This document shows, piece after piece, positions 835 to 57,926 of a stretch of 64,000 nucleotides of DNA; the first letter of the stretch is position 1; the number at the start of each line of letters is the position of its first letter. Source of the stretch: an uncultured Planctomycetia bacterium (GTDB lineage: Bacteria; Omnitrophota; Gorgyraeia; Pluralincolimonadales; Pluralincolimonadaceae); the NCBI GenBank assembly GCA_964650515.1, contig CAZYUB010000002.1, positions 12,708-76,707 of the forward strand. Direction: 5' to 3'. The notes below the pieces were generated by a model. The model was not told the origin of the DNA. It made no database searches and worked only from the letters and a program-made list of their open reading frames with translations. Made by a program: the position numbers and the translations under genes.

Positions 835-836
835 AT

Positions 837-8287: not shown

Positions 8288-8288
8288 T

Positions 8289-11491: not shown

Positions 11492-11492
11492 A

Positions 11493-14997: not shown

Positions 14998-15728
14998 AAA
15001 TAATCGGGGTAATACCGGCGCGTTTCAAGTCATCGAGGTTTCCCGGCAAGCCGTTGGCGGATATATGCGGAAAGCCGCTCGTATGGTGGGTATATAAACA
15101 GGCCGAGAAGGTAAAAGAACTCGGGAAGGTCTATGTCGCTACGGATGACGGCAGGATAGCCCGGGTATGCAAAAAGCTCGCGATACCGTATGTGATGACC
15201 TCGGGCAGGCACCAGACAGGCACGGACAGGGTCGCCGAGGTCGCGAGGAAGGTCAAAGCGGATATTTACGTGAATATACAGGGGGATGAACCCCTGCTGA
15301 AACCCGCTATGATAAGAAGCGCGATAGGACCCCTTTTGAAAAAGAATTCCGGATTCGATGTTACGAACCTGATGTCTTTAATACGCAACCCGAAGGAGGT
15401 ACCGAGCCCGACCGTCCCGAAGGTCGCGGTGAGCGCGAAGGGCGACGCCGTATTCCTCTCGAGGGCGCCGATACCTTATCCGAAGAGGGGCGGCTACGCG
15501 CAGTATTATAAGCAGGTCTGCGTATACGGGTTCAGGAGGAAGGCGTTATTGGCGTTCGGCGGGCTTTCGAGAGGGGCTTCCGAGCTTATAGAGGATATCG
15601 AGCTGCTGCGCTTTATAGAGAACGGCATAAAGGTCAGGATGATCGAAGTGAAAAGCGGCAGCATGGCGGTTGATACTCCTGAGGACCTGAAGGCGGTAAA
15701 AAAGATAATATGCAAAAACCGGGCGTAA
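14994..15728 (+). CDS. 3-deoxy-manno-octulosonate cytidylyltransferase-like (CMP-Kdo synthetase family, KdsB-like)
   Basis: 'IIGVIPARFKSSRFPGKPLADICGKPLVWWVY...GKVYVATDD...VNIQGDEPLL' is the classic KdsB N-terminal pattern; 244 aa. Confidence 0.7.
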   Translation: MKIIGVIPARFKSSRFPGKPLADICGKPLVWWVYKQAEKVKELGKVYVATDDGRIARVCKKLAIPYVMTSGRHQTGTDRVAEVARKVKADIYVNIQGDEPLLKPAMIRSAIGPLLKKNSGFDVTNLMSLIRNPKEVPSPTVPKVAVSAKGDAVFLSRAPIPYPKRGGYAQYYKQVCVYGFRRKALLAFGGLSRGASELIEDIELLRFIENGIKVRMIEVKSGSMAVDTPEDLKAVKKIICKNRA

Positions 15729-18633: not shown

Positions 18634-19559
18634 AACCTTTGGTCAGCGTGCAGGTCTGCTGCTATAATTCGGAGAAATATCTTGCGCAAACCCTTGAGAG
18701 CGTGGCGGCCCAGACGTTCAATGGCTGGGAACTCGTGATCGTAAACGACGGTTCCACGGACGGGACGGAAGCGATAGTGGACGGTTTCGTGAAGAAGGGC
18801 CTGCCGATAACCTACCACAGCCAGCCAAACAGCGGTTTCGCAGCCGCGAGGAACAGGGCGGTAGGGTTGTCGAAAGGCGATTGGATAGCAATACTGGACC
18901 ACGACGACGTATGGCGTCCGGAAAAGCTTGATGTTCAGCTCAAAGCGGCCGAAAAATACCCGAAGGCTAAACTGCACTTCTCCAACTCGGAATGGTTCAC
19001 CGACGACGGTAAGATAGCGAGGAATACGATAGAGGACGGCAGGTTCTGCTCCGGCATAATAAAGGAGCCCTTCACGACGTTGCTGTCCGAGGGTTGCTTC
19101 ATAGACAGCGAGACTGCGCTGATAGACAAAAAGACTCTTGAAACCCTCGGCGGTTTCAACGAGAAATACAAGTATATCGTGGATTACGACATGTTCCTCA
19201 GGATAGCGAAGCAGGACACTATCTGCTATGAGGATAAGGTGCTTGCGGGATGGCGTATGCACCCGTCGCAGGCGACGAAGAAGCTTGAAGAGGAGATGAC
19301 GAGGGAATATATAGACCTTTTCGAGAAAGCGCTGAAGGAGAGCGGCCTGCCGGCGGAGGTAAAGGAGAAGGTGAAGAAGTCTATCGTTTACCACCTCAAC
19401 AACTACTCGCTTCTCATGCTGAAGAAGGAGGGCAAGAAGGCGTTCCTGCGCACGCTGCTGGGCGGGATAAGGAAGAGGCCGATGAGCCCTCACACGTACC
19501 TGAAGACGCTGCATACGTTCTGCAGGGCGTATATGGGCGAGGACATATCGTCAAGATGA
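18630..19559 (+). CDS. GT2 family glycosyltransferase
   Basis: 'VSVQVCCYNSEKYLAQTLESVAAQTF...ELVIVNDGSTDGT' and 'DHDD' are canonical GT-A/GT2 motifs. Confidence 0.75.
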   Translation: MKPLVSVQVCCYNSEKYLAQTLESVAAQTFNGWELVIVNDGSTDGTEAIVDGFVKKGLPITYHSQPNSGFAAARNRAVGLSKGDWIAILDHDDVWRPEKLDVQLKAAEKYPKAKLHFSNSEWFTDDGKIARNTIEDGRFCSGIIKEPFTTLLSEGCFIDSETALIDKKTLETLGGFNEKYKYIVDYDMFLRIAKQDTICYEDKVLAGWRMHPSQATKKLEEEMTREYIDLFEKALKESGLPAEVKEKVKKSIVYHLNNYSLLMLKKEGKKAFLRTLLGGIRKRPMSPHTYLKTLHTFCRAYMGEDISSR

Positions 19560-21076
19560 AGGTGTTGTTCATAAATTTCAATATCGGCTCCACACCGGGG
19601 ATCAATAACGGTATCGCGTGCCTATCCGCCGTCCTGAAGGAGAAGGGCCACAGCACGGCTCTCATATTCCTCTGCGAGCAGCTGGGCTACGGCTTTGACC
19701 CGGACAGGATAAAGAAGGACATATTGTCCGAGGCGCCCGGTATCATAGGGCTGTCGCTTATCGAGACGCAGCTTAAGTATGCCAGGAAACTGATGGAAGG
19801 GCTCAGGAGCTATTATAATGGCATCGTCGTATGCGGCGGGCCGTACCCGACGATGGACCCGGAAGGCTGCCTCGCGATAGAAGGCGTCGACGCCGTATGC
19901 GTCGGCGAGGGCGAGGATGCTCTTACCGAGCTTGCCGACGCGGTAGAGTCAGGCAGGAAGTACGACGGAATAAGGAACATATGGGTAAAGCGGGGCAATA
20001 CGGTAATAAAGAACAAACTGCGCCCGTTCAAGAGCTTATATGACCTGCCTCCGGACGATAAGGAGCTATTCGACCTGGACAGGATACTGCCGCTGAAGAA
20101 TTACCAGCTGGAGACGATGATAGGCAGGGGCTGCGTATACCAGTGCAGTTACTGCATAAACGATTCGTATGTGAGGAGGTACCGCGATCTTTGCGAACGC
20201 AAGGTCGGGCTCAACGATTACATAAGGTTCAAGGACGCCGTCAAGGCGGCTGCGGAGATAAAGGATACGGTCCTGAAACACCCGCAGATAAAGAAGATAG
20301 CTTTCATAGATGATAATTTCATAACCGACGAGAAATACCTCGCCAAGTTATGCGGGGAATATAAAAAGGCCGTGGCCCTGCCTTTCATGTGCAACGTAAA
20401 CCCCGCTTCCTATAACGAAAGGAAGGCGAGGATACTGAAAGAATCAGGCTGCGATGACGTGAGGTTCGGCATCGAGAGCGGAAGTGAGCGCGTAAAAAAA
20501 GAGGTGATGAAGCGTCCCGTCCCTAACAGGAGCGTATTGGAGGCATTCAGGATAAACAAGGAGCTGGATATGATGACCAGCTCATTCAATATGATAGGGC
20601 TGCCTACGGAGACGAAAGAGGAGGTCCTCGAGACGCTGAAGCTCAACGCGCGGATAATGCCGGACACGGTGAAGGTCATGACTTTCTACCCGTTCAAGAA
20701 CACGCCGATATACGGGTTCTGCGAAGAGCTCGGGCTCATCGATACGGAAGCAAAGGAAGAGCTCGATAATTACGATACTTTCACGTGTTTGAAGTTTCCC
20801 GGGGAGTACCGCCTGTTCCTCAGGAAGATGCAGGTCTGCTTCAACTGGTACCTGAACAGCATGCTGGGAAATGAGGCGTCCGGGGCGTACAGGGAGCTCG
20901 TGGAGAAGGCGGAGGGCATGTCCGGCGCGGAATGGGACGGCTATGATTTTTGCGCGGAGGACAAGAAGGTATCCGAAGCGATGAAGGCGAAGAATCTGGA
21001 GCATTACACGAAATATATGAACAGGAGCCTCGCGGTCAAATGGCCGAGCAGGCATACTATTGGAGAGTCGCGATGA
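19556..21076 (+). CDS. B12-binding domain radical SAM protein
   Basis: 'IGRGCVYQCSYC' CxxxCxxC with upstream B12-binding-like Rossmann; C-terminal 'FYPFKNTPIYG'. Confidence 0.7.
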   Translation: MKVLFINFNIGSTPGINNGIACLSAVLKEKGHSTALIFLCEQLGYGFDPDRIKKDILSEAPGIIGLSLIETQLKYARKLMEGLRSYYNGIVVCGGPYPTMDPEGCLAIEGVDAVCVGEGEDALTELADAVESGRKYDGIRNIWVKRGNTVIKNKLRPFKSLYDLPPDDKELFDLDRILPLKNYQLETMIGRGCVYQCSYCINDSYVRRYRDLCERKVGLNDYIRFKDAVKAAAEIKDTVLKHPQIKKIAFIDDNFITDEKYLAKLCGEYKKAVALPFMCNVNPASYNERKARILKESGCDDVRFGIESGSERVKKEVMKRPVPNRSVLEAFRINKELDMMTSSFNMIGLPTETKEEVLETLKLNARIMPDTVKVMTFYPFKNTPIYGFCEELGLIDTEAKEELDNYDTFTCLKFPGEYRLFLRKMQVCFNWYLNSMLGNEASGAYRELVEKAEGMSGAEWDGYDFCAEDKKVSEAMKAKNLEHYTKYMNRSLAVKWPSRHTIGESR

Positions 21077-21783
21077 CGAGCATTCTCATTATGTGCGGAG
21101 GAAGGGGCGCTAGGCTCGGAGATATCACGAAAAATTGTCCGAAGCCGCTGATTAAGATCGGGGGCGTGACTATACTTGAGCGAAAGATCGGGCATTATAT
21201 GCGAAATGGTTTTAAGGATTTCATTGTCTGTATCGGGTATAAGGCAGATATGATAAAATCTTCATTACGAAAAGGCGGTTTTTCAAGATATTGCAGGTAT
21301 TCAGATTCCGGTGAACCCGCGGGAATACTTAAAAGGCTGTATAACGCTCGAAATATGTTTGATGATAATGTGGTTCTTACATACGGAGACACTTTCGCGA
21401 ATATTGATCTGTCTTTGCTCCTAAAGACGCATATAAAGGAGAAGAATTCCGCCACCATAGTAGTGGCTCCTATCCAGAACCCTTTCGGCCTGGTAGAGTA
21501 TGATAATAATAGGAAAGTTTTGTCGTTCAAGGAAAAACCCGTTCTGAATTATTATATCGGATATGCGGTCATTAATAAATCTGACATAGAAAGAGTGCCG
21601 CAGAAAATGATAGGTATGCCCGACGGTAAAGGACTCGTGGAATTTTATAAATATCTTATAGATAAAGGCAGTCTCGGAATATTTGAATATTCGGGGCCGC
21701 AGATAACGTTTAATACGGAGGACGAGCTTAGGCTGGCTCGCAGGAAAATGACCGCATTCTATACAAGCAGGGAGGAAACTTGA
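21073..21783 (+). CDS. sugar-phosphate nucleotidyltransferase (NTP_transferase family)
   Basis: 'ILIMCGGRGARLGDITKNCPKPLIKIGG' G-x-G-x-R-L nucleotide-binding signature. ATGA overlap start at 21073; the ORF-track start 20950 is an upstream extension. Distinctly AT-richer than flanks. Confidence 0.6.
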   Translation: MTSILIMCGGRGARLGDITKNCPKPLIKIGGVTILERKIGHYMRNGFKDFIVCIGYKADMIKSSLRKGGFSRYCRYSDSGEPAGILKRLYNARNMFDDNVVLTYGDTFANIDLSLLLKTHIKEKNSATIVVAPIQNPFGLVEYDNNRKVLSFKEKPVLNYYIGYAVINKSDIERVPQKMIGMPDGKGLVEFYKYLIDKGSLGIFEYSGPQITFNTEDELRLARRKMTAFYTSREET

Positions 21784-22751
21784 AAAACAAGACGGTATTG
21801 GTGACCGGCGGGGCAGGTTTCATAGGTTCGCATTTAACGAAGAGGCTCGTGAAATCGGGCGCGAAAGTATCAGTAGTCGTGAAATACAAGAGCATAATAG
21901 ATAACGTCAGGCTAGCCCCGATATGGGATGATATTACGCCGATTGAGGCCGACCTGAGGAATATCGATTCAATGAGGCAATTTTCGGGAACTTCATACGA
22001 TCTCATATTCCATCTTGCGGCATACAACCATGTCGGAGACAGTTTCATGCACGTCAGTGAGGCGATTGAATCGAATGCGATGGCAACGGCCAACCTGCTT
22101 GAATTCGCCCCGCAATATAAGAGATTCATATATACATCTTCATCTGAAGTGTACGGAAAGCAAAATACCGTTCCGTTCGAAGAGAGCTTTACCCCGCATC
22201 CTATCTCGCCTTACGCTATCGGTAAATATGCCGGAGAGCTTTACGCGAAGATGAAACGCGAGCAGACAGGAAAAGATATAATCTGCTTAAGGTTCTTTAA
22301 CGTGTTCGGGCCTTACCAGAGCGAGAGGGCCGTAATACCGGAACTTATCATTAAGAGCCTGCGGGGGGAACCAATCAAGACTACCGAAGGGAAACAGACG
22401 AGGGAATTCAATTATGTAGATAATATTGTCGACGCCTTTATCGCCGCAGCAAAATTAAAAAAACCTCCGGAGGAGGTCATAAATATTGGCGCGCAGGAAG
22501 AGATATCGATATCGGACCTGGTGCGCAAGATACATAAGATGTCGGGCTCGCGGTCCAAGCTGATGATAGGAGCGCTTGCCTATAGGCCGACGGAAATTTG
22601 GAGGATGTATTCCAATAATACAAGGGCAAAGGAAATACTCGGATGGCAGCCACGGGTGGATTTTGATGAAGGCCTTAAGAAGACCGTGGAATGGTTCAGA
22701 AGGTATGTAAAACTATTCAGGGAAAAAGACTCGCTTCTTTGCAAGCTATGA
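21780..22751 (+). CDS. NAD-dependent epimerase/dehydratase (extended SDR; NDP-sugar 4,6-dehydratase/4-epimerase-like)
   Basis: '[14 protein letters not shown]' Rossmann, 'YAIGKYAGE' YxxxK catalytic motif. TTG start overlaps the upstream stop, with GGAGGA RBS. Confidence 0.7.
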   Translation: MKNKTVLVTGGAGFIGSHLTKRLVKSGAKVSVVVKYKSIIDNVRLAPIWDDITPIEADLRNIDSMRQFSGTSYDLIFHLAAYNHVGDSFMHVSEAIESNAMATANLLEFAPQYKRFIYTSSSEVYGKQNTVPFEESFTPHPISPYAIGKYAGELYAKMKREQTGKDIICLRFFNVFGPYQSERAVIPELIIKSLRGEPIKTTEGKQTREFNYVDNIVDAFIAAAKLKKPPEEVINIGAQEEISISDLVRKIHKMSGSRSKLMIGALAYRPTEIWRMYSNNTRAKEILGWQPRVDFDEGLKKTVEWFRRYVKLFREKDSLLCKL

Positions 22752-23620
22752 TGAACGTGAAGATAGGGATAACAGGGTCAAGAGGGTTCATAGGTTCCGA
22801 GTTGGCGGGGCATCTTGAAAGCAACGGCTTCAAGGTAGTCAAGCTGGACGGACATACTCGGCAGGAAAGCGGCGAGAATGAAAAGAGCGCCTTGCCGAAA
22901 GGCCTGAAATGGGTACTTCATTTTGCCGCATCGACATCTATTGAGGAGAGCCGGAAAGACCCGTTTCGAACATATAGGAACAATATAGATTCTACTCTTG
23001 CGGCGATTGAAATAGCCAAAGAGTCGAAAGCCGCCTTATTGTTCATGAGTTCATATGTTTACGGAAACCCGAAGTACGTTCCTATTGACGAGGACCATCC
23101 TCTTGGGGCTGTGAACCCATACATGTCGAGTAAGATAATATGCGAGGATATCTGCCGTCAGGTATCCAAGTTAATGTCAATACCTCTTGTCATATTAAGA
23201 GGATCGAATATTTATGGAAAAACCCTTATCAAGGGAAGGCTTATTCCCGATTTGCTGGAATCGGCGAAAAAGGGCGAGCAATTGACGATAACCGACCCTC
23301 TTCCAAGGAGGGATTACCTGTACATAAGGGATTTTTGCGGGTTGATTATCAAAATACTTGATAACGATCCCCCTATACAAGGGACATTCAATGCCGGACA
23401 GGGCCAAAGCTATTCCAACAAGGAAGTTGCGGAAATAGTTAGACGGCTTAGTTCAAATAAATACCCGGTAGCTGTTAACGGTCCGAAAAGGGAGAACGAC
23501 ATTAAGGACGCCTCGATAAACGTTTCTCTTGTAAAGAAGACTTTCATGTGGGAACCGTCATACAGTCTGGAAGACGGGCTGAAGGAACTCATAGGTCATA
23601 GAAAGAGAGGGTTAATATGA
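22748..23620 (+). CDS. NAD-dependent epimerase/dehydratase family (short form; NDP-4-keto-6-deoxyhexose reductase/epimerase-like)
   Basis: 'IGITGSRGFIGSEL', 'YMSSKIICE' YxxxK; about 290 aa. ATGA overlap start. Confidence 0.65.
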   Translation: MMNVKIGITGSRGFIGSELAGHLESNGFKVVKLDGHTRQESGENEKSALPKGLKWVLHFAASTSIEESRKDPFRTYRNNIDSTLAAIEIAKESKAALLFMSSYVYGNPKYVPIDEDHPLGAVNPYMSSKIICEDICRQVSKLMSIPLVILRGSNIYGKTLIKGRLIPDLLESAKKGEQLTITDPLPRRDYLYIRDFCGLIIKILDNDPPIQGTFNAGQGQSYSNKEVAEIVRRLSSNKYPVAVNGPKRENDIKDASINVSLVKKTFMWEPSYSLEDGLKELIGHRKRGLI

Positions 23621-24552
23621 TATCAATAATATCTCCGGTCTACAACGAAGCCGAAAATCTTGAAGAGCTTTGCAACAGGATCACGTCGGCCGTTAAGAAA
23701 GAGGAAGTTGATTATGAGGTCATCTTTGTAGATAACGGAAGCACGGATCGGTCGCTCGATGTAATAAAAAAGCTCAGGAAAAGCGACGCTAAAGTAAAAT
23801 ATGTAAGCCTTTCAAGGAATTTCGGCCATCAGGGAGGTATTGTTGCGGGTCTTTCAAGTGCATCTGGTGACGCGGTAATTTCACTTGACGCCGATCTTCA
23901 GCATCCGCCCGAACTCATACCGGAACTGATCAGGAAGTGGAAGGGCGGTTACTGTGTTGTTTCAACGACAAAGAAATTCAAAGGGGTGAGTTCAGGATTC
24001 AGCCTGTTCCCGAGCAGGATATTTTACAAGCTGATAAGCTCCATATCGGACATCAATTTGACCTACGGAGAATCGGATTATCGCCTGCTCGACCGGAAGG
24101 TGGTTGATGCAGTGTTGGAGATACCTGAAAAGCACAAATTCCTTCGCGGTATGGTCAAATGGGTCGGATTTTCGCAGACATCGGTCGAATACGAGGTAGC
24201 CCAGAGAAAATCCGGCGAATCGAAATTCTCGTTCTGGAATTACGTTAATTTTGCGTTTGACGGGATATTTTCATTCTCTATCGTACCTTTGAGGGTCTTC
24301 CTTTGGTCGGGCATCCTGGTGGCGTTATTCTGCATATTATGGGGAGCGTTCTATTTTGTAATGGGCCTGATCAGCCTTTTTTCCCCCGAGAAGAACCTTT
24401 TGCCGCCCGGCTCTGCCACGATAACGGTCAGCATAATGTTTCTCGGCGGAGTGCAGCTTATCGGGATAGGGATACTCGGCGAGTACCTTGGGCGCGTATA
24501 CCAGCAGACGAAGGAAAGGCCGGATTTTATCGTGAAGGAAAAAGAGCTGTAA
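23617..24552 (+). CDS. GT2 polyprenyl-phosphate glycosyltransferase (DPM1/ArnC/GtrB-like) with C-terminal TM helices
   Basis: 'ISIISPVYNEAENL...IFVDNGSTDRS...VSLSRNFGHQGGIVAGL...ISLDADLQHPPE', then two hydrophobic helices at the C-terminus. Confidence 0.75.
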   Translation: MISIISPVYNEAENLEELCNRITSAVKKEEVDYEVIFVDNGSTDRSLDVIKKLRKSDAKVKYVSLSRNFGHQGGIVAGLSSASGDAVISLDADLQHPPELIPELIRKWKGGYCVVSTTKKFKGVSSGFSLFPSRIFYKLISSISDINLTYGESDYRLLDRKVVDAVLEIPEKHKFLRGMVKWVGFSQTSVEYEVAQRKSGESKFSFWNYVNFAFDGIFSFSIVPLRVFLWSGILVALFCILWGAFYFVMGLISLFSPEKNLLPPGSATITVSIMFLGGVQLIGIGILGEYLGRVYQQTKERPDFIVKEKEL

Positions 24553-24558
24553 TAAGCC

Positions 24559-25401
24559 ATGGGTAATTGCATAGTTTGCGGCAGCAACGATAAAGGCCCC
24601 TTATTCGGAAAAATATCCAGATGCAAGGGGTGCGGCCATATATATTATGGTATAGAGCATACCGATGAAGAGATAGAAAGGCTTTATTCACATGGGTATT
24701 TCTTCGGGGAGGAATACAGCGATTATGTTGCTGACAGGAAAACCGCGAGCAAAAATTTCAGGCTTAGGGTCAAGGTTCTTAAACGGTTCCTGGACGCAAG
24801 CAAGCATAAGCGGCTGCTTGAGATTGGATGCGCATACGGGTTTTTTCTCGAGGAGGCTAAGGAATATTTTACTTCCGTTAAAGGCATCGATGTCTCTAAA
24901 GAGGCTGTGTCATACGCTAAGGACAGGCTGTTTTTGGATGTTGAAAGCGATGAATTCCTTAAACACGATTATAAGGGACAAAAATTCGATTGTGTATGCA
25001 TGTGGGACACCATCGAGCACTTGAAAAGGCCGGACCTGTATATTGAGAAGATCGGGCAGCTGACCGATAAGGGGGCTTTGCTTGCGCTGACGACCGGGGA
25101 TATAGCGAGCTTTAGCGCAAGAATGATGAAAAGTAAATGGCGCCTTATCCATCCACCCACCCATATACATTATTTTTCGGAAAAATCGCTTGCTAAGTTA
25201 TTGGAAAGGGGCGGTTTTAGGATTATTTATAAGTCTCATTGCGGATTTTTCAGGAGCATAGATATGCTGTTTAACAGGACCGTAGGCAAGATCCCGGGAT
25301 TGGGCAGATTATGTTCATTTATCGGCAAAACCGCTATTGGAAGGGTTGATTTTTATGTTAATCTTCGTGATATCATGTATTTGATCGCAAAAAAAGATTA
25401 G
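24559..25401 (+). CDS. class I SAM-dependent methyltransferase with N-terminal Zn-ribbon
   Basis: 'CIVCGSN...CKGCGH' ribbon; 'LLEIGCAYGFF' SAM motif I; 'DCVCMWDTIEHL' motif III. Confidence 0.6.
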   Translation: MGNCIVCGSNDKGPLFGKISRCKGCGHIYYGIEHTDEEIERLYSHGYFFGEEYSDYVADRKTASKNFRLRVKVLKRFLDASKHKRLLEIGCAYGFFLEEAKEYFTSVKGIDVSKEAVSYAKDRLFLDVESDEFLKHDYKGQKFDCVCMWDTIEHLKRPDLYIEKIGQLTDKGALLALTTGDIASFSARMMKSKWRLIHPPTHIHYFSEKSLAKLLERGGFRIIYKSHCGFFRSIDMLFNRTVGKIPGLGRLCSFIGKTAIGRVDFYVNLRDIMYLIAKKD

Positions 25402-25417
25402 TCTAGGGAGGTTAGAG

Positions 25418-27391
25418 ATGTGCGGCATATTCGGGTTCGTGCTAAACAAGGAATCAAAGATGTCGGAGGATGGCATCCGCGGGATGTTGCCTCTGATATG
25501 CAGGCTTTCGGAAAGGCGGGGGAGCGAAGCATCGGGTATCGCGATAGGCTTAGAAGGCGCGATATCATATTTTAAGAAGCCGATGAGGCCTACGCAGCTG
25601 GTCAAGGAAACGGATTTCCGGAAATTTATCGATTCTAAACTGGGACTGGCGGCCTCCGGCGAGTCAAGGATGGTAGAAAAGCCTTTTGCGGTGATCGGGA
25701 ACAGCCGCCTTGTGACGAACGGCACGCAGGCGGTGGCCCAGAACAACCAGCCGGTCGGCGCCGGCCGCGTAGTCGGCGTTCACAACGGGATCATAACCAA
25801 TTCGGACAGGATCCTGGAGAAGTACCCGAATGTCAGAAACGCGGTTGTGGATAGTTCGGATTCAGATACGTCAGTGCTTATGGGGTTGATAAATGAAAAA
25901 TACGCGGAAAGCGGCGATATAAAAAGTGCGCTCGCAGAAACGTATTCTGATATAGAAGGTTCTGCGTCTATTGCATTCATGTGCGAGAACGCGCCGTTTA
26001 TCGCGCTTGCGACAAATACAGGTTCCTTATTCTACAGTAACGATCCAAGTGCACGGATGTTTGTATTCGGTTCAGAGAAATTCATTGTAGAACGGTTCCT
26101 TGCCGGCAGTAAGATAGCATCCGGAAGGGATTTTGTTCCGGTGGTGCAGATCAAGCCGCATACCGCCGCTATAGTGGATATACATTCGGGCGCGCCTGAT
26201 ATTTACGACATGAGAGGGTACCAAAGCGGGAAAAAGATGGTTATCTCGGGCAAGAGATCCGGGTTATACAAGATATTTGATGAAAGCGAATCGAAGGTTG
26301 AATTAAAGCGATGCACGAGATGCATCCTGCCCGAATCATATCCGTTCATTGCTTTTGACGAAGAAGGTGTATGCAATTACTGCAGAAGATATAAGAAACA
26401 GGAATACCTTGGAAAAGCCGCGCTGGAAGAGGTGTTGTCAAAACACAGGTCGAAGGATGGTAAGCCCGACTGCATTTATGGCTTAAGCGGGGGCAGGGAC
26501 AGTTCCTACGGGTTGCATGTGCTTGTAAAAGAATTCGGGATGCATCCTATAGCGTATACATATGATTGGGCGCTTGTTACAGACCTTTCCAGGAGGAACC
26601 AGGCAAGGATCACCGGGAAGCTCGGAGTTGAGCATCTTATCAGAGCAGCGGATATACACGCCAAGAGGAGGCATATACGAAAGAATATCTACGCATGGCT
26701 TAAAAGGCCTAAGCTTGGCATGGTCACGATTTTCATGGCTGGCGACAAAATGTTTTACTACTATGGAAGGCAGTTGCGGAAAGAGACGGGGATTGATTTC
26801 ACCGTATTCGCTTCTGGACAACAGGTGGAGCAGATGGAATTCAAAGTCGGCTATTGCGGCATAAACAAGCAGCTTGTGAATAATACGCGCCTTTACGATT
26901 ACGGAGCATCGGCGAAGATGCGCCTTGCGCTATGGTACGGAAAGGAATTCATGCTTAATCCCTCCTACCTCAACGAATCACTCCCGGACAATATATTCGC
27001 GTTTTATTCCAGTTTCCTGAATAAGGATGACTATCTCTATCTCTATAATTACCTGCCTTGGGATGAAAAGCTGATAGAAAAAACAGTAATAGAACAATAC
27101 GGATGGGAGTCCGACGTTAAGTACGGCGGAAATCAGTGGAGAATGGGCGATGGCCAGACGGCTTTTATTAATTATATATATTATACGATAGGAGGTTTCT
27201 CCGAGTTTGATAATTTCCGAAGCAACCAGGTAAGGGAGGGATGGATTAAGAGGGAAGAGGCGCTTAACCTTGCGGAAAAGGATAACAGGCCTCGAATAGA
27301 CATGCTCCTTGATTTCAGCCAGCTGATAGGTTTTAATCTCGAAGACGTGCTTTTAAGGATTAATTCGATACCAAAGACATATATAAAATAA
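25418..27391 (+). CDS. class-II (Ntn) glutaminase domain fused to WbuX/PseA-type N-acetyl-sugar amidotransferase (PP-loop)
   Basis: N-terminus 'MCGIFGFV' with nucleophile Cys2 and AsnB-like 'GNSRLVTNG'. Middle 'CTRCILPESYPFIAFDEEGVCNYC' matches the WbuX/PseA zinc ribbon. 'SGGRDSS' PP-loop. GGGAGG RBS in the 16-nt gap upstream. Confidence 0.65.
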   Translation: MCGIFGFVLNKESKMSEDGIRGMLPLICRLSERRGSEASGIAIGLEGAISYFKKPMRPTQLVKETDFRKFIDSKLGLAASGESRMVEKPFAVIGNSRLVTNGTQAVAQNNQPVGAGRVVGVHNGIITNSDRILEKYPNVRNAVVDSSDSDTSVLMGLINEKYAESGDIKSALAETYSDIEGSASIAFMCENAPFIALATNTGSLFYSNDPSARMFVFGSEKFIVERFLAGSKIASGRDFVPVVQIKPHTAAIVDIHSGAPDIYDMRGYQSGKKMVISGKRSGLYKIFDESESKVELKRCTRCILPESYPFIAFDEEGVCNYCRRYKKQEYLGKAALEEVLSKHRSKDGKPDCIYGLSGGRDSSYGLHVLVKEFGMHPIAYTYDWALVTDLSRRNQARITGKLGVEHLIRAADIHAKRRHIRKNIYAWLKRPKLGMVTIFMAGDKMFYYYGRQLRKETGIDFTVFASGQQVEQMEFKVGYCGINKQLVNNTRLYDYGASAKMRLALWYGKEFMLNPSYLNESLPDNIFAFYSSFLNKDDYLYLYNYLPWDEKLIEKTVIEQYGWESDVKYGGNQWRMGDGQTAFINYIYYTIGGFSEFDNFRSNQVREGWIKREEALNLAEKDNRPRIDMLLDFSQLIGFNLEDVLLRINSIPKTYIK

Positions 27392-27392
27392 T

Positions 27393-28220
27393 ATGGGCGT
27401 AAACTGCACTATTTGCGGAAACAGCGCGAATACCATCCTCGCAGACGGGACGATAAACCGGTATGACTGCGTATCCTGCGGACATTCATTTTCCGTGATT
27501 GAGCCGTCAAAACAAGTTTCTTACAATGCGGATTACTATGACCTTAAGCATGCAAACTGGTTCAGCAATCCCAATATATGGTTATTCAGGTACATTTTGA
27601 AGCAGGCGCGGATCATCCTGGGCGACGGCAGGATATCGGTGGTCGATGTGGGGTGCGGTAAGGCTGATTTCCTGAAATACGCAAGGATAAAAGACCGCAA
27701 GGTCGATGTTTACGGCATAGACCTGTGCGATAACGATATTCCGGACATAGCGTTCTATAGGGCAGATTTCCTAAAAACGGAGATCAACCGGAAATTTGAT
27801 CTGGTTACAAGCATGGCCTCGATCGAACATGTTGAAGATGTGAATTCTTTTGTCAGGAGGCTGGCGAATCTATCGTCTCAGGGAGGCATTATATCCGTAA
27901 CTACGGATAATGCAGGCGGGATATTCTTTTCATTGTCGAGATTTCTAAAAAAGGCGGGATTGGCAACGCCTTATTACAGCCTTTATGAGCCGGCCCATTT
28001 GCAGCATTTCACGAATAAATCATTGCGGATCCTTCTTGAAAAGAACGGACTTAAGGTCATCTCGCAAAGGAACCACAATTATCCCGCTGAAGCGGTGGAC
28101 ATGCCGGATGCAAACCCGTTCATGAAGATGGTTTATATATTAGGAGTACGCTTCCTGTTTGCCATGCCGTCGAACTTCGGGATCCTGCAGACAGCTATTT
28201 GCAGGAAGGAAAGAAATTGA
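27393..28220 (+). CDS. class I SAM-dependent methyltransferase with N-terminal Zn-ribbon
   Basis: 'CTICGNS...CVSCGH' ribbon; 'VVDVGCGKADFL' motif I; 'FDLVTSMASIEHV'. Confidence 0.55.
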   Translation: MGVNCTICGNSANTILADGTINRYDCVSCGHSFSVIEPSKQVSYNADYYDLKHANWFSNPNIWLFRYILKQARIILGDGRISVVDVGCGKADFLKYARIKDRKVDVYGIDLCDNDIPDIAFYRADFLKTEINRKFDLVTSMASIEHVEDVNSFVRRLANLSSQGGIISVTTDNAGGIFFSLSRFLKKAGLATPYYSLYEPAHLQHFTNKSLRILLEKNGLKVISQRNHNYPAEAVDMPDANPFMKMVYILGVRFLFAMPSNFGILQTAICRKERN

Positions 28221-30094
28221 ACCGCAGCCCTTTCCGTATTAAATACGGGCTTTACGCGATCTTGCTTCTTGTTATCTGTATTGCGGTCGCATCATCTGTT
28301 TTGCCCGGTATCGGCAAACACCTCGACAACCCTAACCTTATACCGTATTTCAACGTTGACGAAGGTTATCTTATGGACCTGATGTGGTATTACTACTCAG
28401 GGGAGATCAGGGACAGTTTCCAGATGACGCTTGATTACGGGTTGGAGATGGTTTACGTGGTCAAGTTCTGCCGCATATTCCTTTCGGAGAAAATGGTATT
28501 CACCCCGGGCACTTTCGTAATGATATTCAGGTATATTCATCTCATATCCTGGATCGCGGCTATTATTTGTTTATGGGGGCTGGTCGGCAGGCATTTCCGT
28601 AAAGGCGCAGAGCAGGTAGTTGTGGCGGGCCTTCTTGCCGTTAGCCCGAGTTTCGGTTATTTCATGAACAGCCTTAAGCCGGACCCTTTGTTATTACTTA
28701 TCATGGTCTTGGGCATGGATTATACTCTCAGGATGATAGATAAACCGCGAACAGCATATTTCATTGCCGTCATATTTTTGTCTGCAATGGGATTCGTGGT
28801 CAAATTTTCCGGCATATTTATGCTCTTGCCGTTAATAGCGTCATTATATATTTCACGCCAAATGTTAAATAATGAGAATAGCTGGATCGCGCGGTTCAAT
28901 ATAAGAGGGGTGTGGTGCATACCCTTGGTTGCTTCGGCAGTAATGATCGCGCTGCCGATAGCGGCTATATTTATATATGTTCGAAAAACATCGGGAATGA
29001 CATATTTTCAGGAATATGGATTTTGGCAGGCGTTTATAAGATATAAGATAGCGACGGTATTTGGCGCGGCCGGTTTGTCTCTTGCGGCATTTAGTATCGC
29101 CTTGTACAAGATGAGCAGGTCAAGGAAGGACTACGTGCGGGAAATATGGAAAAAACTTGAGATATTTGGGTCGTATTCGGTCTTTGCCGCGGGCGCTTTT
29201 ATCATTGCTTTATTGATCGTAGGATTCGGATGGCTGCTGATGCCGGCGCATTTCTTCGAAACATATTTTCTTAACGGGATGGATTTTACCGGTGGCGAGA
29301 TCCTTAAGCAGGTAAAGACCATACCGCAGTTAACCGCGGTATATTCTTCTGCGATCGCCGAAAGGTTAGGGTCATTGGATATCGTCATGTTAGCGCTGTT
29401 TGCCGTGTATGCGTTAGTTGAATATAATTATCGTACGACTCTTGCCAGGGAAGATGAAGCCAGACGCAGAAAAAGATTACTAATATCCGTTTATTTGATC
29501 CCTTTTTTCATGATGATGTTTACGCTGGGCCGGTTTACGAACCATCACGCGCTTATATTCACTGTTTTTGTGTCATTGTTGGCCGTAGAAGGTATATATA
29601 TCATCATGACGAGGCCGAATATGAATATGCTTGTAAAGTCGGTTATCGGGACAGGCGCTGCCGTATATTTCCTGATTGATTTGACGCTGGGCGGTTATGC
29701 GATGGCAAAAGAGCGCATGTATGAGCTGAGAAAAGATGAAGATGTTTGCTTCGAGGTGGAAAAATGGATCCGGAATAACCTTCCCCAGGACGCAAGAATC
29801 CTCACCGATTATCATACTAGGGCCTATGTTCCCCCTTATCTTAATAATCCGATAACTCTGAAGCACGGGGGTAAGGACAGGCTTACACAGATAACAGAGC
29901 TTATTAATGATGCCAGGCCGCGCTATATATATTTGAATGAAGGGACCGGTGATGAGAACCTGCCTCCTATCGAAAAAATAGTCACGGGCGGAAAAACCAG
30001 GCTGTTGGCTTACTTCGAAAGCAAGGGAAGGCAATACCAGAGAAGGAGAGGAGATAAATACGTAATATATGAAATATTTTACGAAAGTAAGTAG
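28199..30094 (+). CDS. polytopic membrane protein, GT-C fold (ArnT/PMT-like) glycosyltransferase candidate with C-terminal periplasmic domain
   Basis: At least 11 hydrophobic helices, then a soluble ~150-aa tail. TTG start is uncertain: the first in-frame ATG lies after the first TM helix. Low-GC region. Confidence 0.5.
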   Translation: MQEGKKLNRSPFRIKYGLYAILLLVICIAVASSVLPGIGKHLDNPNLIPYFNVDEGYLMDLMWYYYSGEIRDSFQMTLDYGLEMVYVVKFCRIFLSEKMVFTPGTFVMIFRYIHLISWIAAIICLWGLVGRHFRKGAEQVVVAGLLAVSPSFGYFMNSLKPDPLLLLIMVLGMDYTLRMIDKPRTAYFIAVIFLSAMGFVVKFSGIFMLLPLIASLYISRQMLNNENSWIARFNIRGVWCIPLVASAVMIALPIAAIFIYVRKTSGMTYFQEYGFWQAFIRYKIATVFGAAGLSLAAFSIALYKMSRSRKDYVREIWKKLEIFGSYSVFAAGAFIIALLIVGFGWLLMPAHFFETYFLNGMDFTGGEILKQVKTIPQLTAVYSSAIAERLGSLDIVMLALFAVYALVEYNYRTTLAREDEARRRKRLLISVYLIPFFMMMFTLGRFTNHHALIFTVFVSLLAVEGIYIIMTRPNMNMLVKSVIGTGAAVYFLIDLTLGGYAMAKERMYELRKDEDVCFEVEKWIRNNLPQDARILTDYHTRAYVPPYLNNPITLKHGGKDRLTQITELINDARPRYIYLNEGTGDENLPPIEKIVTGGKTRLLAYFESKGRQYQRRRGDKYVIYEIFYESK

Positions 30095-34097: not shown

Positions 34098-35246
34098 ATG
34101 AAGATGCGGAAGGCTGTCATAATAATATTATGCTGTACCGTAGCGTTTACGTTATTTCCGTTCGCGATGTTGGCCAACAGGGGTACGGCATATTTCGCTT
34201 ACAAAGAGATAGCATATAAAACGATGGCAGATAGGCTGGCCAGCAGCTCTGACGGGCCTGAAGAAGCAGCGATGCGCATCAGCGAGTATTATCACCGGTA
34301 CCTGTTCACGCCGTTAGGGGCCCAAGCCGTAGATAAGGATACTTATAATGACATCATCAGGGGAATAGCATATTGCGACCAGAAGGCCTGGGGGATGTCC
34401 GCTTTTCTTGCGAAACGGGGAATAGACAGCAGGATGATTATGGCAGTCAATCCCGACGGCCAGTCAAACCATACCGCCCTTGAAGCGAATATCGGAGGAA
34501 AATGGAGGTATTTCGACCCACAATATGCGCTAGTTATACGCAGGAAGGACGGGGAGCTTGCTTCATACAATGATATGTGCGAGGACTCGTCGCTTTTGGT
34601 CGATTCTCCAAGGATGTGCCTGCTGGAGAAGGCCTGCCCCGCGGAGTTCGAGATCGTAAGTAAATACCTGGAAAAGAACGTGTTCAATCCGGGAGTTATA
34701 AAACCGGTAATATGGAATAGCCCCGCCAAAAGCAAGGGAAACGCAAAACGCGCCCTATCGGGCGTTTTGGACACTTATGTCGCGTTCTTCGGCAGGAAAT
34801 TCTCCTGTCTCTTCCAGGACGCGTATCTGGGCATCTATTCCGGGAAGGGCGGACATAATGCCGATTATCTGCTCGCAAGGAATTATGATATCTACGGAAG
34901 GTACGATAAAGCGGCCTATTATTACAGGAAGTTCATAGGGAATTCTTCATCAGATGCCGAAAGGTATTCCGCAATGCTGTTCCTCTCGATCATATATACA
35001 AATAGCGGGGACTATGAGGCCGCGATAGGTACACTCAGGACTATGATGGCGGAGCAGGCGTCATCTAAATGGGCGTCGTCTATGTATTACTGGCTCGGTT
35101 ATAATTATGAGGCCCGGAATGATGCGGAAAAGGCAGCGGATTGCTACCGGACCTCCATAAAGGAACGCGCGAAGACGGGTGACCCGTCGGATATGGTAAA
35201 ACTACTAGAACTAGATTCATTCGAAAGGCTTGCGGAATTGGAATGA
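34098..35246 (+). CDS. secreted or membrane-anchored transglutaminase-like (Cys-His-Asp) domain protein with C-terminal TPR repeats
   Basis: N-terminal hydrophobic signal/anchor. 'CDQKAWGMSAF' (Cys), 'NHTALE' (His), 'RYFDPQ' (Asp) are spaced as in transglutaminase-like cores. C-terminal repeated 'Y..A...Y..' TPR-like helices. Confidence 0.45.
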   Translation: MKMRKAVIIILCCTVAFTLFPFAMLANRGTAYFAYKEIAYKTMADRLASSSDGPEEAAMRISEYYHRYLFTPLGAQAVDKDTYNDIIRGIAYCDQKAWGMSAFLAKRGIDSRMIMAVNPDGQSNHTALEANIGGKWRYFDPQYALVIRRKDGELASYNDMCEDSSLLVDSPRMCLLEKACPAEFEIVSKYLEKNVFNPGVIKPVIWNSPAKSKGNAKRALSGVLDTYVAFFGRKFSCLFQDAYLGIYSGKGGHNADYLLARNYDIYGRYDKAAYYYRKFIGNSSSDAERYSAMLFLSIIYTNSGDYEAAIGTLRTMMAEQASSKWASSMYYWLGYNYEARNDAEKAADCYRTSIKERAKTGDPSDMVKLLELDSFERLAELE

Positions 35247-56033: not shown

Positions 56034-57926
56034 ATGTGCGGGATCTGCGGGATCATAGACATCTCCGGAAAGCCTGTAAGCGCCGACGCGGTAAAGGCAA
56101 TGTGCTCGGAGATGAAGCACCGCGGCCCCGACGACGAAGGGATATACCTGAATGATGCCGGCAGCGGCCCCTCGGCCGCTCTCGGCCACAGGAGGCTGAG
56201 CATCATAGACCTGTCGTCGTGCGCGAAGCAGCCGATGTCGAACGAGGACGGTTCGGTATGGCTTGTCCTGAACGGAGAGATATATAATTACAACGAGCTG
56301 AGGCCCGGGCTCGAGAGTAAGGGCCATAAGTTCAGGTCGCATTCCGATACCGAGACGCTAGTGCACCTGTACGAGGAATACGGCGTAAAGTGCGTCGACA
56401 TGCTCAGGGGGATGTTCGCGTTCGCGATCTGGGACGATAATAAGAAGGAGCTTTTTGCGGCCCGGGACAGGGTCGGGAAGAAGCCGTTCATATATCAGCA
56501 TAAGGACGGAAGGTTCGTGTTCGCGTCCGAATTCGCGGCGATCCTGAAGAGCGGCGATATATCCCGAAAAGTAAGCGATGACGCGATACACTATTACATG
56601 AGCCTTGGTTACGTCCCGGCCCCGATGTCGGCGCTGGAAGGCGTAAGCAAACTGTCGCCTGCCTGCTATCTTACGCTTTCCAGGAACGGCCTTAAGGTGG
56701 AACGATATTGGGAACTGGATTACTCCAGGAAGCTAAAGATAAGCGAGGAAGATGCCGCGGCCGAGGTCAGAAGGCTTGCTGAAGAAGCGGTAAAGATAAG
56801 GTTGTTCAGCGACGTCCCTCTCGGCGCTTTCCTGAGCGGCGGGGTAGACTCAAGCTGTGTAGTGGCGATGATGAGCAAACTCTCCCCTGGAAAGGTCAGG
56901 ACCTTTACGATAGGCTTCGAGGAAAAGGACTACAGCGAGCTCGAATACGCAAGGAAGATATCGGGCCTTTTCGGCACCGAACACCGTGAATTCATCGTGA
57001 AGCCGAATGCGCTCGATATCATAGGCATGCTTGCGGAAAGGTACGGCGAACCGTATGCCGACTCTTCGTGCATACCGACGTACTACGTATCGAAGGAGAC
57101 GCGCGCGTTCGTGACTGTCGCCCTTAACGGCGACGGCGGCGACGAATCATTCGCTGGATACGAGCGTTACCAGGCGATGAGCGCGGCGGAAAAGATCCGC
57201 GGCCTCGGGCTGGGCGCGGCGGCTAAAGCCGCCGCAACGGTATTGCCGGACTCGACAGACCCGAAGGACCTTGCGCGCAGGGCAAGGAGGTTCCTTACCA
57301 ACGCGGGGCTGCCAGCGGCCGAAAGATACTTGAGATGGGTCGGGATAGCGGGGGACGTAAAACCTGAGGGGCTGTATTCCGGGGATTACCTTGGCCGTAT
57401 AGATAGAAGCGGCCCGTTAAACCTGCTGAAACCGTATATAGGCGACAGGTCGTGCCCGGAGTTCCTCGACAGGCTCCTGAAGGCCGACGTGAACACGTCG
57501 CTGCCGAACGACCTGCTCGTAAAAGTCGATATCGCGGGCATGGCGGCGTCGCTCGAAGGGCGTTCGCCGTTCCTCGACCATAAGCTTATGGAATTCGCGG
57601 CGTCACTTCCCTCGTCATATAAGATAAAAGGAAGCGTCAAGAAGTACATACTTAAGAAGGCCTTCTCGGGGGTGATACCCGCCGACATACTTTCGAGGAG
57701 GAAAATGGGATTCGGCGTGCCTGTAAGCGCGTGGTTCAGGGGAGAGCTGAAGGGAATACTGGCGGAGACCCTGCTTTCAAAGGCGTCGCTATCGAGGGGA
57801 TATTTCAGGCAGGAGGCGGTAAAAGGGATGGTCGAGAGCCATACCTCCGGAAGGAAGGATTATTCGTTCCAATTGTGGGCGATGTTGATGCTCGAACTGT
57901 GGCATAAGAGGTTCATCGACGGATGA
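56034..57926 (+). CDS. asnB: asparagine synthase (glutamine-hydrolysing) family amidotransferase, AsnB-like
   Basis: 'MCGICGI', 'LGHRRLSIIDLS', 'LNGEIYNYNELR', PP-loop 'SGGVDSS'; 630 aa. AGAGAGG RBS upstream. Confidence 0.8.
   Translation: MCGICGIIDISGKPVSADAVKAMCSEMKHRGPDDEGIYLNDAGSGPSAALGHRRLSIIDLSSCAKQPMSNEDGSVWLVLNGEIYNYNELRPGLESKGHKFRSHSDTETLVHLYEEYGVKCVDMLRGMFAFAIWDDNKKELFAARDRVGKKPFIYQHKDGRFVFASEFAAILKSGDISRKVSDDAIHYYMSLGYVPAPMSALEGVSKLSPACYLTLSRNGLKVERYWELDYSRKLKISEEDAAAEVRRLAEEAVKIRLFSDVPLGAFLSGGVDSSCVVAMMSKLSPGKVRTFTIGFEEKDYSELEYARKISGLFGTEHREFIVKPNALDIIGMLAERYGEPYADSSCIPTYYVSKETRAFVTVALNGDGGDESFAGYERYQAMSAAEKIRGLGLGAAAKAAATVLPDSTDPKDLARRARRFLTNAGLPAAERYLRWVGIAGDVKPEGLYSGDYLGRIDRSGPLNLLKPYIGDRSCPEFLDRLLKADVNTSLPNDLLVKVDIAGMAASLEGRSPFLDHKLMEFAASLPSSYKIKGSVKKYILKKAFSGVIPADILSRRKMGFGVPVSAWFRGELKGILAETLLSKASLSRGYFRQEAVKGMVESHTSGRKDYSFQLWAMLMLELWHKRFIDG

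Follow-up and report, generated by a model that had tools for sequence, protein, structure and literature searches.

A glutaminase-fused relative of the N-acetyl-sugar amidotransferases in a surface-glycan cassette: architecture, context and predicted function

Acetamidino groups make neutral or acidic surface sugars cationic, and in Pseudomonas, Legionella and Campylobacter the sugars that carry them affect serotype, recognition by phages and antibodies, and colonisation of the host. An acetamidino-forming O-antigen system, made up of WbpG, WbuX or LfnA together with HisH2 and HisF2 (WbuY and WbuZ), is known from Pseudomonas aeruginosa O5 and O12 and from Escherichia coli O145. The amidotransferase itself, a member of the N-acetyl-sugar amidotransferases (NASATs), is a stand-alone protein of about 380 residues. 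It draws its ammonia from HisH, a separate class-I glutaminase, together with a HisF-like barrel; the interaction of WbpG with HisF2 and the proposal for ammonia delivery have been described in PMC11445079. The structure of LpNASAT served to define the tetracysteine motif of the family (CxxC-xn-[GN]xCxxC), its zinc binding, and the SGGxDS PP-loop (PMC10607449). According to that report, the sole structural paper on the family, the structure and function of NASATs are little characterised, and even for the canonical enzymes the chemistry is derived from genetic work and a structure without ligand (PMC10607449). No report of an in-vitro NASAT reconstitution was found in the literature searched.

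As proposed, the canonical ammonia relay takes three proteins. What, then, of a single polypeptide that brings its own glutaminase? Such an enzyme would be much simpler, and it could be used to study the mechanism, from how ATP is turned into AMP and PPi to the ammonia tunnel and the stage of the substrate. This article describes a candidate, encoded in a window of 64,000 nucleotides (the whole stretch of DNA analysed), with particular attention paid to its two domains, its gene neighbourhood and the reactions that it may carry out.

One gene, two domains

The initial annotation had described a glutaminase fused to a PP-loop enzyme within a single ORF, and this is what the ORF list and its translations contain: a protein of 657 residues with an MCGIFGF start, a zinc ribbon and an SGGRDSS motif (Table 1). 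A protein 100% identical to it is present in a public collection. The ribosome-binding site, as read from the sequence, is strong (GGGAGG, 6 nt before ATG-TGC), and since the ORF lister takes the first start codon after a stop, no in-frame extension upstream is possible. The objections raised along with the annotation, a different start or an artefactual fusion, therefore fail: MCGIFGF is the only possible start, and hundreds of full-length homologs share the two-domain layout. The AlphaFold2 model (mean pLDDT 89.8, pTM 0.88), whose sole low-confidence stretch is made of linker residues 275–279, suggests that the two domains have a defined mutual arrangement. All catalytic motifs are kept in 61 aligned fusion homologs (45–62% identity), which on alignment evidence is far beyond chance.

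Table 1. Features of the fusion gene and its cassette, in window coordinates
Feature	Position	Strand	Basis
Upstream cassette genes	20950..25401	+	Pfam/NCBIfam scans, motifs
Shine-Dalgarno GGGAGG	25406..25411	+	read from sequence
Fusion-protein gene, complete, stop codon included	25418..27391	+	ORF list; full-length homologs, 45–62% identity
Class-II (Ntn) glutaminase domain, aa 1 to ~240	25418..26137	+	
Inter-domain linker with short beta-hairpin, aa ~241–295	26138..26302	+	AlphaFold2 pLDDT by block, secondary structure
NASAT-type PP-loop ATP-pyrophosphatase domain, aa 296–657	26303..27388	+	
Zn-binding tetracysteine CxxC-x14-GVCxxC (C299, C302, C319, C322)	26312..26383	+	sequence; PMC10607449 motif definition
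PP-loop SGGRDS, aa 357–362, ATP alpha-beta pyrophosphatase signature	26486..26503	+	sequence
Downstream cassette genes (methyltransferase and GT-C)	27393..30094	+	Pfam
Second SAM methyltransferase	27393–28220	+	Pfam
ArnT-like PMT_2 GT-C glycosyltransferase	28199–30094	+	Pfam

The N-terminal domain has the features of a class-II (Ntn) glutaminase: the nucleophile Cys2 directly after the initiator methionine, the glutamine-binding and oxyanion residues, Pfam matches above the gathering threshold, and an Ntn fold. R97, N123-G124 and D150 align with R73, N98-G99 and D123 of GlmS (1xff). Together with C2 they are invariant or nearly so in the 61 homologs, at least 90% of which keep the M1-C2 pair in the alignment. 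Over residues 88–220 the GATase check proposed in the initial annotation was positive for two Pfam models: GATase_6 reached 41 bits against a cutoff of 27, and GATase_7 reached 29.6 against 25.

The C-terminal domain carries the tetracysteine segment CTRCILPESYPFIAFDEEGVCNYC at residues 299–322 and SGGRDSS at residues 357–363, with the cysteines placed N-terminal to the PP-loop as in the NASAT definition. All four cysteines are invariant in the 61 homologs, as is SGGRDS, whose counterpart in the alignment with 8wex is the PP-loop SGGKDS. Comparison with NASATs by hhalign gives a probability of 99.96% (E 6e-39, 314 columns). Homology and fold extend beyond the PP-loop core over the whole domain of some 350–380 residues, and D314, N394, D443, E471, Y517, Y545, S602 and R612, all outside the PP-loop, are common to the fusion and the canonical enzymes. 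The WbuX/PseA/LfnA-type assignment made at the outset thus holds for motifs and whole-domain homology, but not for close membership: the NCBIfam model TIGR03573 (WbuX) returns E 3.5e-38 and 131.9 bits, under its cutoff of 203.2, and fusion C-domains form a separate clade in a neighbour-joining tree. Given this low score, an identity of no more than about 21% with NASATs and 26 invariant residues that are specific to the clade, among them W384, R392, K444, W574, R575, D578, E596 and D598, the substrate or the chemistry could differ from theirs. The best explanation of these comparisons is that the fusion would be a divergent member of the NASAT superfamily.

Where would its ammonia come from? 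The HisH/HisF2 (WbuY/WbuZ) association is typical but not universal for NASATs: the initial annotation took these partners to be normally needed, and four of six sampled canonical loci have adjacent hisH and hisF2. The fusion has no such association. That annotation's statement that the window encodes neither partner was upheld twice: domain scans detected no HisH or HisF domains in plus-strand ORFs of at least 150 residues across the 64 kb, and a tblastn of all six frames, for which HisH and HisF2 of a canonical triad served as queries, yielded no match (best E 0.75), which rules out copies hidden in unannotated frames. Among 80 related loci, hisH/hisF occur in only one, which also has its own canonical NASAT. 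The fusion clade appears to have swapped a separate HisH/HisF supply for a built-in glutaminase, a clear example of a module for ammonia supply being displaced by an unrelated one while the synthetase scaffold stays the same.

The cassette and the spread of the family

The cassette that contains the fusion gene is low in GC and similar to the Arn pathway. Upstream come, in this order, a sugar-1-phosphate nucleotidyltransferase (true start probably near 21073), two SDR genes (SDR1 and SDR2), an ArnC/PgfS-like polyprenyl-phosphate GT2 matching PgfS with 299 bits and ArnC with 184 bits, and a Zn-ribbon SAM methyltransferase, so that two methyltransferases flank the fusion gene. The best family match of SDR1 is LegB, a GDP-GlcNAc 4,6-dehydratase. 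Of its motifs SSSEVYG and YAIGK, the former contains a Glu as in dehydratase or decarboxylase-type SDRs, and excludes a plain GalE-type epimerase and nothing further. Its solved relatives are mixed (epimerases, UDP-GlcA decarboxylases, 4,6-dehydratases), and epimerases, decarboxylases and dehydratases are likewise mixed among those of both SDRs and the nucleotidyltransferase taken together. Genes of the NeuB/NeuC type for nonulosonic acids are absent beside the fusion gene, and three family-linked flippases, used as queries against the window, found no Wzx flippase there. Further away, the AsnB-type enzyme noticed earlier (56034..57926) is a genuine AsnB, which scores 326.9 bits with Asn_synthase and 157 bits with GATase_7 and has the start MCGICG.

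The cassette is conserved in Omnitrophota, in Brocadiaceae and in one other metagenome contig. Three loci (L001, L002 and L005) repeat the upstream gene order of the window and have a PMT_2 gene after the fusion gene. In 9 of 80 loci, across phyla, the fusion gene has a methyltransferase gene directly beside it. Wzx-type flippases occur within 10 kb of it in 41 of the 73 loci with enough downstream sequence, about 25 of them having the flippase directly downstream.

The family is large and widespread, with members in at least 571 species genomes from many phyla, including the abundant marine lineages SAR11, Prochlorococcus and Rhodospirillales, Omnitrophota, anammox bacteria and cultured strains such as Solidesulfovibrio carbinolicus DSM 3852 (WP_129355994.1), Pseudomonas abietaniphila ATCC 700689, Agrobacterium sp. 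MA01 (WP_153763859.1) and Legionella londiniensis ATCC 49505; the closest relatives of the window protein are from Omnitrophota MAGs (58% identity). It is without an established name, and a search of the literature for a glutaminase-fused NASAT found none. In keeping with the score of the window protein below the TIGR03573 cutoff, PGAP does not name homologs NASAT. Members are at present unnamed or misnamed, and both their annotation and predictions of surface-glycan chemistry would gain from a correct definition of the family.

Proposed function and its alternatives

The best inference from the sequence, with a probability of roughly 0.6, is that the fusion enzyme would convert the N-acetyl group of a sugar to an acetamidino group. 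It would act as a single-chain amidotransferase dependent on glutamine and ATP. The Zn-ribbon/PP-loop domain would bind ATP and adenylate the carbonyl oxygen of the N-acetyl group, releasing PPi, while the Ntn domain would hydrolyse glutamine by means of Cys2, bared once the initiator methionine is removed. An internal route would then bring the ammonia to the adenylated intermediate, from which it would displace AMP, giving a cationic acetamidino (acetimidoylamino) sugar that is 0.984 Da lighter. In this scheme the fused class-II glutaminase would take over the role proposed for the HisH glutaminase and the HisF2 barrel with WbpG/WbuX. The self-sufficient acetamidino-forming enzyme of the initial annotation is partly borne out: in its architecture, its homology and the absence of HisH/HisF, its product being probable to the degree just given.

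Most plausibly, the cassette would make a nucleotide-activated 6-deoxy-N-acetylhexosamine and load it onto polyprenyl phosphate, its N-acetyl being turned into an acetamidino group, and the sugar would be handed on, beyond the cytoplasmic membrane, to an acceptor at the surface. The amidine may be N-methylated beforehand, by analogy with Campylobacter, where the NASAT PtmG is followed by the N-methyltransferase PtmH (PMC3766260). A more ambitious and decidedly tentative reading would make the fusion clade more than a repetition of WbpG chemistry, namely a separate, horizontally mobile, Arn-like system of surface charge modification. The polyprenyl-phosphate-linked 6-deoxy-N-acetylhexosamine would be amidinated on its lipid carrier, and the flanking methyltransferases would N-methylate it. 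A dedicated Wzx-type flippase would then flip it, and the GT-C enzyme would pass it to an envelope acceptor. If true, this would be an unrecognised route to a permanently cationic sugar, from Omnitrophota and anammox bacteria through to SAR11 and Prochlorococcus.

Another carbonyl may be the target instead. PP-loop enzymes such as AsnB, NadE and QueC commonly adenylate carboxylates, and AsnB-like WbpS or MoeF5-type enzymes make carboxamides (uronamides). It is possible, if unlikely, that the fusion does the same with a carboxylate, for example that of a hexuronic or ulosonic acid whose carrier is a nucleotide or polyprenyl, or with some other non-acetyl carbonyl. The divergence of the clade (its score under the TIGR03573 cutoff, its 26 specific invariant residues) points in this direction, as do the closest solved relatives of SDR1, which include the UDP-GlcA 4-epimerase MoeE5 and UDP-GlcA decarboxylases, and the UDP-sugar 6-dehydrogenase genes near the fusion homologs of P. 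abietaniphila and a Rhodospirillales MAG. The minimal cassette, for its part, is without aminotransferase, acetyltransferase or sugar 6-dehydrogenase, which makes a GlcNAc-1-P-derived sugar the simplest nitrogen-bearing substrate.

Still less probable is a substrate other than a carbohydrate, a peptide, lipid or small-molecule precursor being amidated or amidinated, with an incidental position among glycan genes. The same Zn-ribbon/PP-loop scaffold does occur in a Bacillus thuringiensis cluster of ACP, ketosynthase and adenylating-enzyme genes and in NRPS fusions, but these relatives are distant (24–36% identity) and have no glutaminase domain. The homolog of Legionella londiniensis lies among ATP-grasp ligases and ComA, with no obvious adjoining sugar genes; however, in the window and most related loci the fusion gene is surrounded by glycan genes (GT2, GT-C, SDR, nucleotidyltransferases), to which the flippase counts given above may be added.

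It is very improbable that the Ntn domain is dead or merely regulatory and that free ammonia or an unlinked glutaminase is used, an idea with no direct support apart from the modest Pfam scores of 41 and 29.6 bits. There is next to no chance that the public names are right: homologs, where not simply called hypothetical, are labelled by RefSeq and JGI as QueC (7-cyano-7-deazaguanine synthase), GlmS (glucosamine 6-phosphate synthetase) or AsnB (asparagine synthetase B), yet the fusion has no PF00733 (Asn_synthase) match at E ≤0.1, GlmS models cover residues 1–198 only (43–52 bits against cutoffs of 381–418), with neither the C-terminal SIS isomerase domains nor the full-length match of a GlmS, and domain tests returned no QueC model or fold.

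Comparison with known systems

With WbpG, WbuX and LfnA, the fusion has in common the Zn tetracysteine, the SGGxDS PP-loop, the fold over about 310 residues and a location in surface-glycan clusters. Presumably, both activate the acetamido carbonyl with ATP for attack by ammonia derived from glutamine. Unlike them, the fusion carries a class-II Ntn glutaminase at its N-terminus, and no HisH/HisF is encoded. PtmG (Cj1324) and PseA of Campylobacter, as well as ORF28/LpNASAT of Legionella pneumophila (PDB 8wex), are single-domain enzymes with CMP-legionaminic or CMP-pseudaminic acid as substrates, whereas the fusion cassette has a polyprenyl-phosphate route (GT2 and GT-C) and no adjacent NeuB/NeuC-type genes.

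The order of domains, a Cys2 Ntn glutaminase followed by a C-terminal PP-loop ATP pyrophosphatase, is that of AsnB, WbpS and the second such enzyme of the window. Internal transfer of ammonia belongs to this shared logic and would extend to the fusion.

The cassette as a whole is reminiscent of Arn (ArnC/ArnT) and Pgf (PgfS/PgfM), which modify surface molecules by way of polyprenyl-phosphate-linked sugars: it has an ArnC/PgfS-like GT2, a PMT_2 GT-C and, between them, sugar-modifying enzymes, with a flippase in relatives. Its likely product is a cationic sugar, like the L-Ara4N of Arn. In contrast to Arn, it has no homologs of ArnA, ArnB or ArnD, and its charge would come from an amidine, where that of Arn comes from a free amine.

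Architecture of the fusion protein

The initial annotation described a WbuX/PseA-type N-acetyl sugar amidotransferase (NASAT) with an N-terminal glutaminase, and the features on which it was based are all present exactly as claimed: the ORF, its N-terminal MCGIFGF, a zinc ribbon (CTRCILPESYPFIAFDEEGVCNYC, residues 299–322) and the PP-loop SGGRDSS (residues 357–363). Both motifs defining the NASAT family, the SGGxDS PP-loop and the zinc-binding CxxC-xn-[GN]xCxxC (PMC10607449), are found in the protein. Upstream in-frame extension is impossible, since the ORF already opens at the earliest start codon that follows a stop, and a Shine-Dalgarno sequence (GGGAGG) lies 6 nt 5′ of the ATG-TGC. With an upstream start thus ruled out, Cys2 is the N-terminal residue after loss of the initiator methionine.

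Pfam recognizes only GATase_6 (41 bits, cutoff 27) and GATase_7 (29.6 bits, cutoff 25) at residues 88–220, and none of its models matches the C-terminal 360 residues. The NCBIfam models for GlmS and PurF match weakly at the N-terminus. The proposed assignment stands for the glutaminase, but for TIGR03573 (WbuX, NASAT) the match, despite its E-value of 3.5e-38, scores 131.9 bits, under the curated cutoff of 203.2. Among solved structures, the best match by sequence is the Legionella pneumophila NASAT (8wex), followed by GlmS glutaminase domains, in which R73, N98-G99 and D123 align with R97, N123-G124 and D150 of the fusion protein.

In a tblastn search of plasmids with the C-domain, PGAP-named NASATs match only its first 100–180 residues (26–38% identity). 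Aligned profile to profile against 14 canonical NASATs, the fusion C-domains match over the whole domain (99.96% probability, E = 6.4e-39, 314 columns, 21% identity). The C-domain of an AlphaFold2 model built from a 61-sequence alignment (mean pLDDT 89.8, pTM 0.88) aligns with 8wex over about 375 columns (Foldseek, TM 0.58). Beyond the motifs, D314, N394, D443, E471, Y517, Y545, S602 and R612 are common to both groups, and 26 further residues are invariant in the fusion clade only. A neighbour-joining tree, a crude method, groups the fusion C-domains in one clade, and the distance from it to two clades of canonical NASATs is about the same as the distance separating those two. Whole-domain homology, shared residues and separate clade indicate, from sequence and model, that the C-domain is a distinct subfamily of the NASAT superfamily rather than a strict TIGR03573 member. 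The tetracysteine motif itself is not universal among PGAP-named NASATs, since the canonical enzyme of Spirosoma oryzicola (locus L008, 4001–5158) has lost two of the four zinc cysteines (MKICTKG...GVSNFC), as have its close homologs P0121-P0240.

A conserved family and its proposed ammonia supply

A search of 5.8 billion proteins gave 4439 matches, the best 120 of which are nearly all full-length (about 650 residues, 44–62% identity) and come from Omnitrophota, Brocadiaceae, Rhodospirillales, Bdellovibrionota and other groups. Among library representatives at 50% identity, E ≤ 1e-30 is reached by 446 clusters, the best 150 being almost all two-domain proteins of 620–690 residues, and a genome scan found relatives in at least 571 GTDB species genomes. 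Across 61 aligned members, M1-C2-G3-I4-F5-G6, R97, N123, G124 and D150 are invariant or nearly so, as are C299, C302, C319, C322 and S357-S362. The 80 loci kept from these genomes for comparison, all matching essentially the full protein length, span Omnitrophota, Alphaproteobacteria (including SAR11), Planctomycetota, Myxococcota, Bdellovibrionota, Acidobacteriota, Nitrospinota, Bacillota, Verrucomicrobia, Patescibacteria, one Woesearchaeote and one Prochlorococcus single-cell genome; the cultured strains Pseudomonas abietaniphila ATCC 700689 and Legionella londiniensis ATCC 49505 are among them. Plasmid records add homologs from Solidesulfovibrio carbinolicus DSM 3852 (labelled QueC) and Agrobacterium sp. 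MA01 (labelled GlmS).

The proposed glutaminase fusion is thus borne out by full-length two-domain homologs that keep the catalytic residues; it is a conserved family, and an annotation artefact is rejected. The family is widespread and currently misannotated: matches are named hypothetical, asparagine synthetase B or glutamine-fructose-6-P transaminase, no NCBIfam model names it, and full-text literature searches turned up no description of a glutaminase-fused NASAT.

HisH2 and HisF2 have been proposed to deliver ammonia to WbpG, with experimental support for a WbpG-HisF2 interaction (PMC11445079), and the same WbuX-HisF2-HisH triad is found in a Sphingomonas cluster (PMC11340318). Genes for hisH and hisF2 adjoin the canonical NASAT in four of six sampled loci but not in the other two. 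The window had been read as lacking such partners, and indeed Pfam finds no HisH/HisF domain in its + strand ORFs of at least 150 residues, nor does tblastn with a canonical HisH/HisF2 pair in all six frames (best E 0.75). HisH/HisF lies within 10 kb of the fusion gene in only one of the 80 loci, a Bacillota MAG (L073, 7436–11944) in which a complete canonical hisH-hisF-NASAT triad stands directly upstream of the fusion homolog. One cluster thus holds both types of enzyme, which suggests that they are not redundant.

The cassette and its genomic context

A single long glycan cluster on the + strand makes up the window, and in it GC is 0.45–0.48 over about 20–30 kb (20001–30000) against 0.53–0.56 in the flanks; this stretch coincides exactly with the cassette carrying the fusion gene.

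Genes of the cassette, in order, and other features of the window
Feature	Position	Strand	Remarks
Nucleotidyltransferase		+	cassette gene 1
SDR1		+	cassette gene 2; LegB best family match, 195 bits, under model cutoff
SDR2		+	cassette gene 3
GT2		+	cassette gene 4; PgfS-like (299 bits), ArnC-like (184 bits)
Methyltransferase		+	cassette gene 5; directly before fusion gene
Fusion gene	25418–27391	+	cassette gene 6; 657 aa; N-terminus MCGIFGF
Second methyltransferase		+	cassette gene 7
PMT_2 GT-C	28199–30094	+	cassette gene 8
CMP-activated-sugar-like module	328–15728		HAD phosphatase, GFO/IDH/MocA oxidoreductase, Ldh_2 dehydrogenase, three CTP_transf_3 cytidylyltransferases
CTP_transf_3-GT2 fusion (one of the module's three cytidylyltransferases)	8289–9641
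ABC exporter of the same module	11493–13298
HMGL-like aldolase or synthase of the same module	13273–14997
B12-binding radical SAM	4874–6520
B12-binding radical SAM	15710–17206
B12-binding radical SAM	19556–21076
B12-binding radical SAM	43544–44992
Transglutaminase-like TPR protein	34098–35246
PMT_2 GT-C	35243–37066
PMT_2 GT-C	40762–42114
Nucleotidyltransferase-GT2 fusion	42096–43547
Acetyltransf_6/polysaccharide-deacetylase pair	46120–48181
AsnB	56034–57926
GT1-DUF218 fusion	57927–59783
Large ORF	837–2669		no Pfam match
Large ORF	9641–11491		no Pfam match
Large ORF	16963–18633		no Pfam match
Large ORF	39230–40765		no Pfam match
Large ORF	49794–51896		no Pfam match

The cassette's gene order recurs in one Omnitrophota MAG, one metagenome contig and one Brocadiaceae MAG (L002), the last two with a Wzx-type flippase in place of the second methyltransferase. 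In L002 the cassette forms an island bounded by toxin-antitoxin genes, which, with the low GC, suggests a horizontally mobile glycan-modification unit. What stays constant around the gene in Rhodospirillales and a number of other phyla is a Wzx-like flippase just downstream. Of the 73 loci whose sequence continues far enough past the fusion gene, 41 have a flippase homolog within 10 kb, and in about 25 this homolog is the very next gene, in the same orientation. In 9 of the 80 loci, drawn from several phyla, a homologous methyltransferase directly adjoins the fusion gene. Upstream of it in P. abietaniphila come a UDP-sugar dehydrogenase, a methyltransferase and a GT2. In L. londiniensis (L055, 2889–11348) the genes flanking the homolog encode two ATP-grasp ligases, a ComA-like phosphosulfolactate synthase and a transglutaminase-like protein, a setting that does not resemble a typical glycan cluster.

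More distant relatives include a stand-alone, single-domain zinc-ribbon/PP-loop protein of 323 residues on a Bacillus thuringiensis HD1002 plasmid (L009, 6004–6975; named QueC by PGAP), beside ACP, adenylating-enzyme and ketosynthase genes, and domains within NRPS or condensation-domain proteins of Roseovarius and Streptomyces (plasmid matches H15, H17). The scaffold therefore also serves outside sugar metabolism.

Elsewhere in the window, the second AsnB-type enzyme of the initial annotation proves a bona fide AsnB. The four B12-binding radical SAM enzymes, also found in related clusters (L001, L003, L005), probably act on sugars, as C-methyltransferases or in some other radical tailoring step, and the CMP-activated-sugar-like module may make an unusual ulosonic-type sugar. 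The three PMT_2 enzymes and the TPR protein suggest that several modifications relying on polyprenyl-phosphate-linked sugars take place outside the cytoplasmic membrane. Synteny of the GT1-DUF218 fusion and the acetyltransferase/deacetylase pair with an Omnitrophota MAG (L005) fits an Omnitrophota-like origin of the window.

Proposed reaction and known systems

The best-supported reading of the sequence is a single-chain, glutamine- and ATP-dependent amidotransferase. Its PP-loop domain would adenylate the acetamido carbonyl, and the Cys2 glutaminase would supply ammonia internally, presumably through a tunnel, to displace AMP and leave an acetamidino sugar (probability about 0.6). The main rival, amidation of a carboxylate to a uronamide, seems unlikely. 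The minimal cassette encodes no aminotransferase, N-acetyltransferase or sugar 6-dehydrogenase, and SDR1 carries SSSEVYG and YAIGK, so it is a Glu-containing dehydratase/decarboxylase-type SDR; a GalE-type epimerase is rejected on the first motif. An NDP-GlcNAc-derived 6-deoxy-HexNAc would then be the simplest substrate for acetamidino formation, an assignment that is not secure because the solved relatives of SDR1 mix epimerases, UDP-GlcA decarboxylases and dehydratases. By analogy, the ArnC-like and ArnT-like enzymes suggest delivery to a putative acceptor via a polyprenyl-phosphate carrier. What the sequences establish is the domain layout, the homology, the residue conservation, the lack of HisH/HisF partners and the recurrence of the cassette; substrate, product, tunnel, step order and acceptor are inferred.

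PtmG followed by PtmH yields N-methylacetimidoyl legionaminic acid (PMC3766260), and the cassette's flanking methyltransferases recall this NASAT-then-methyltransferase pair. In practical terms, the fusion would let NASAT chemistry be dissected with a single protein. Asparagine synthetase already follows the same design principle, a PP-loop synthetase with an attached Ntn glutaminase, so the kind of system is not new; the novelty lies in pairing the NASAT scaffold with a different, covalently attached ammonia supplier.
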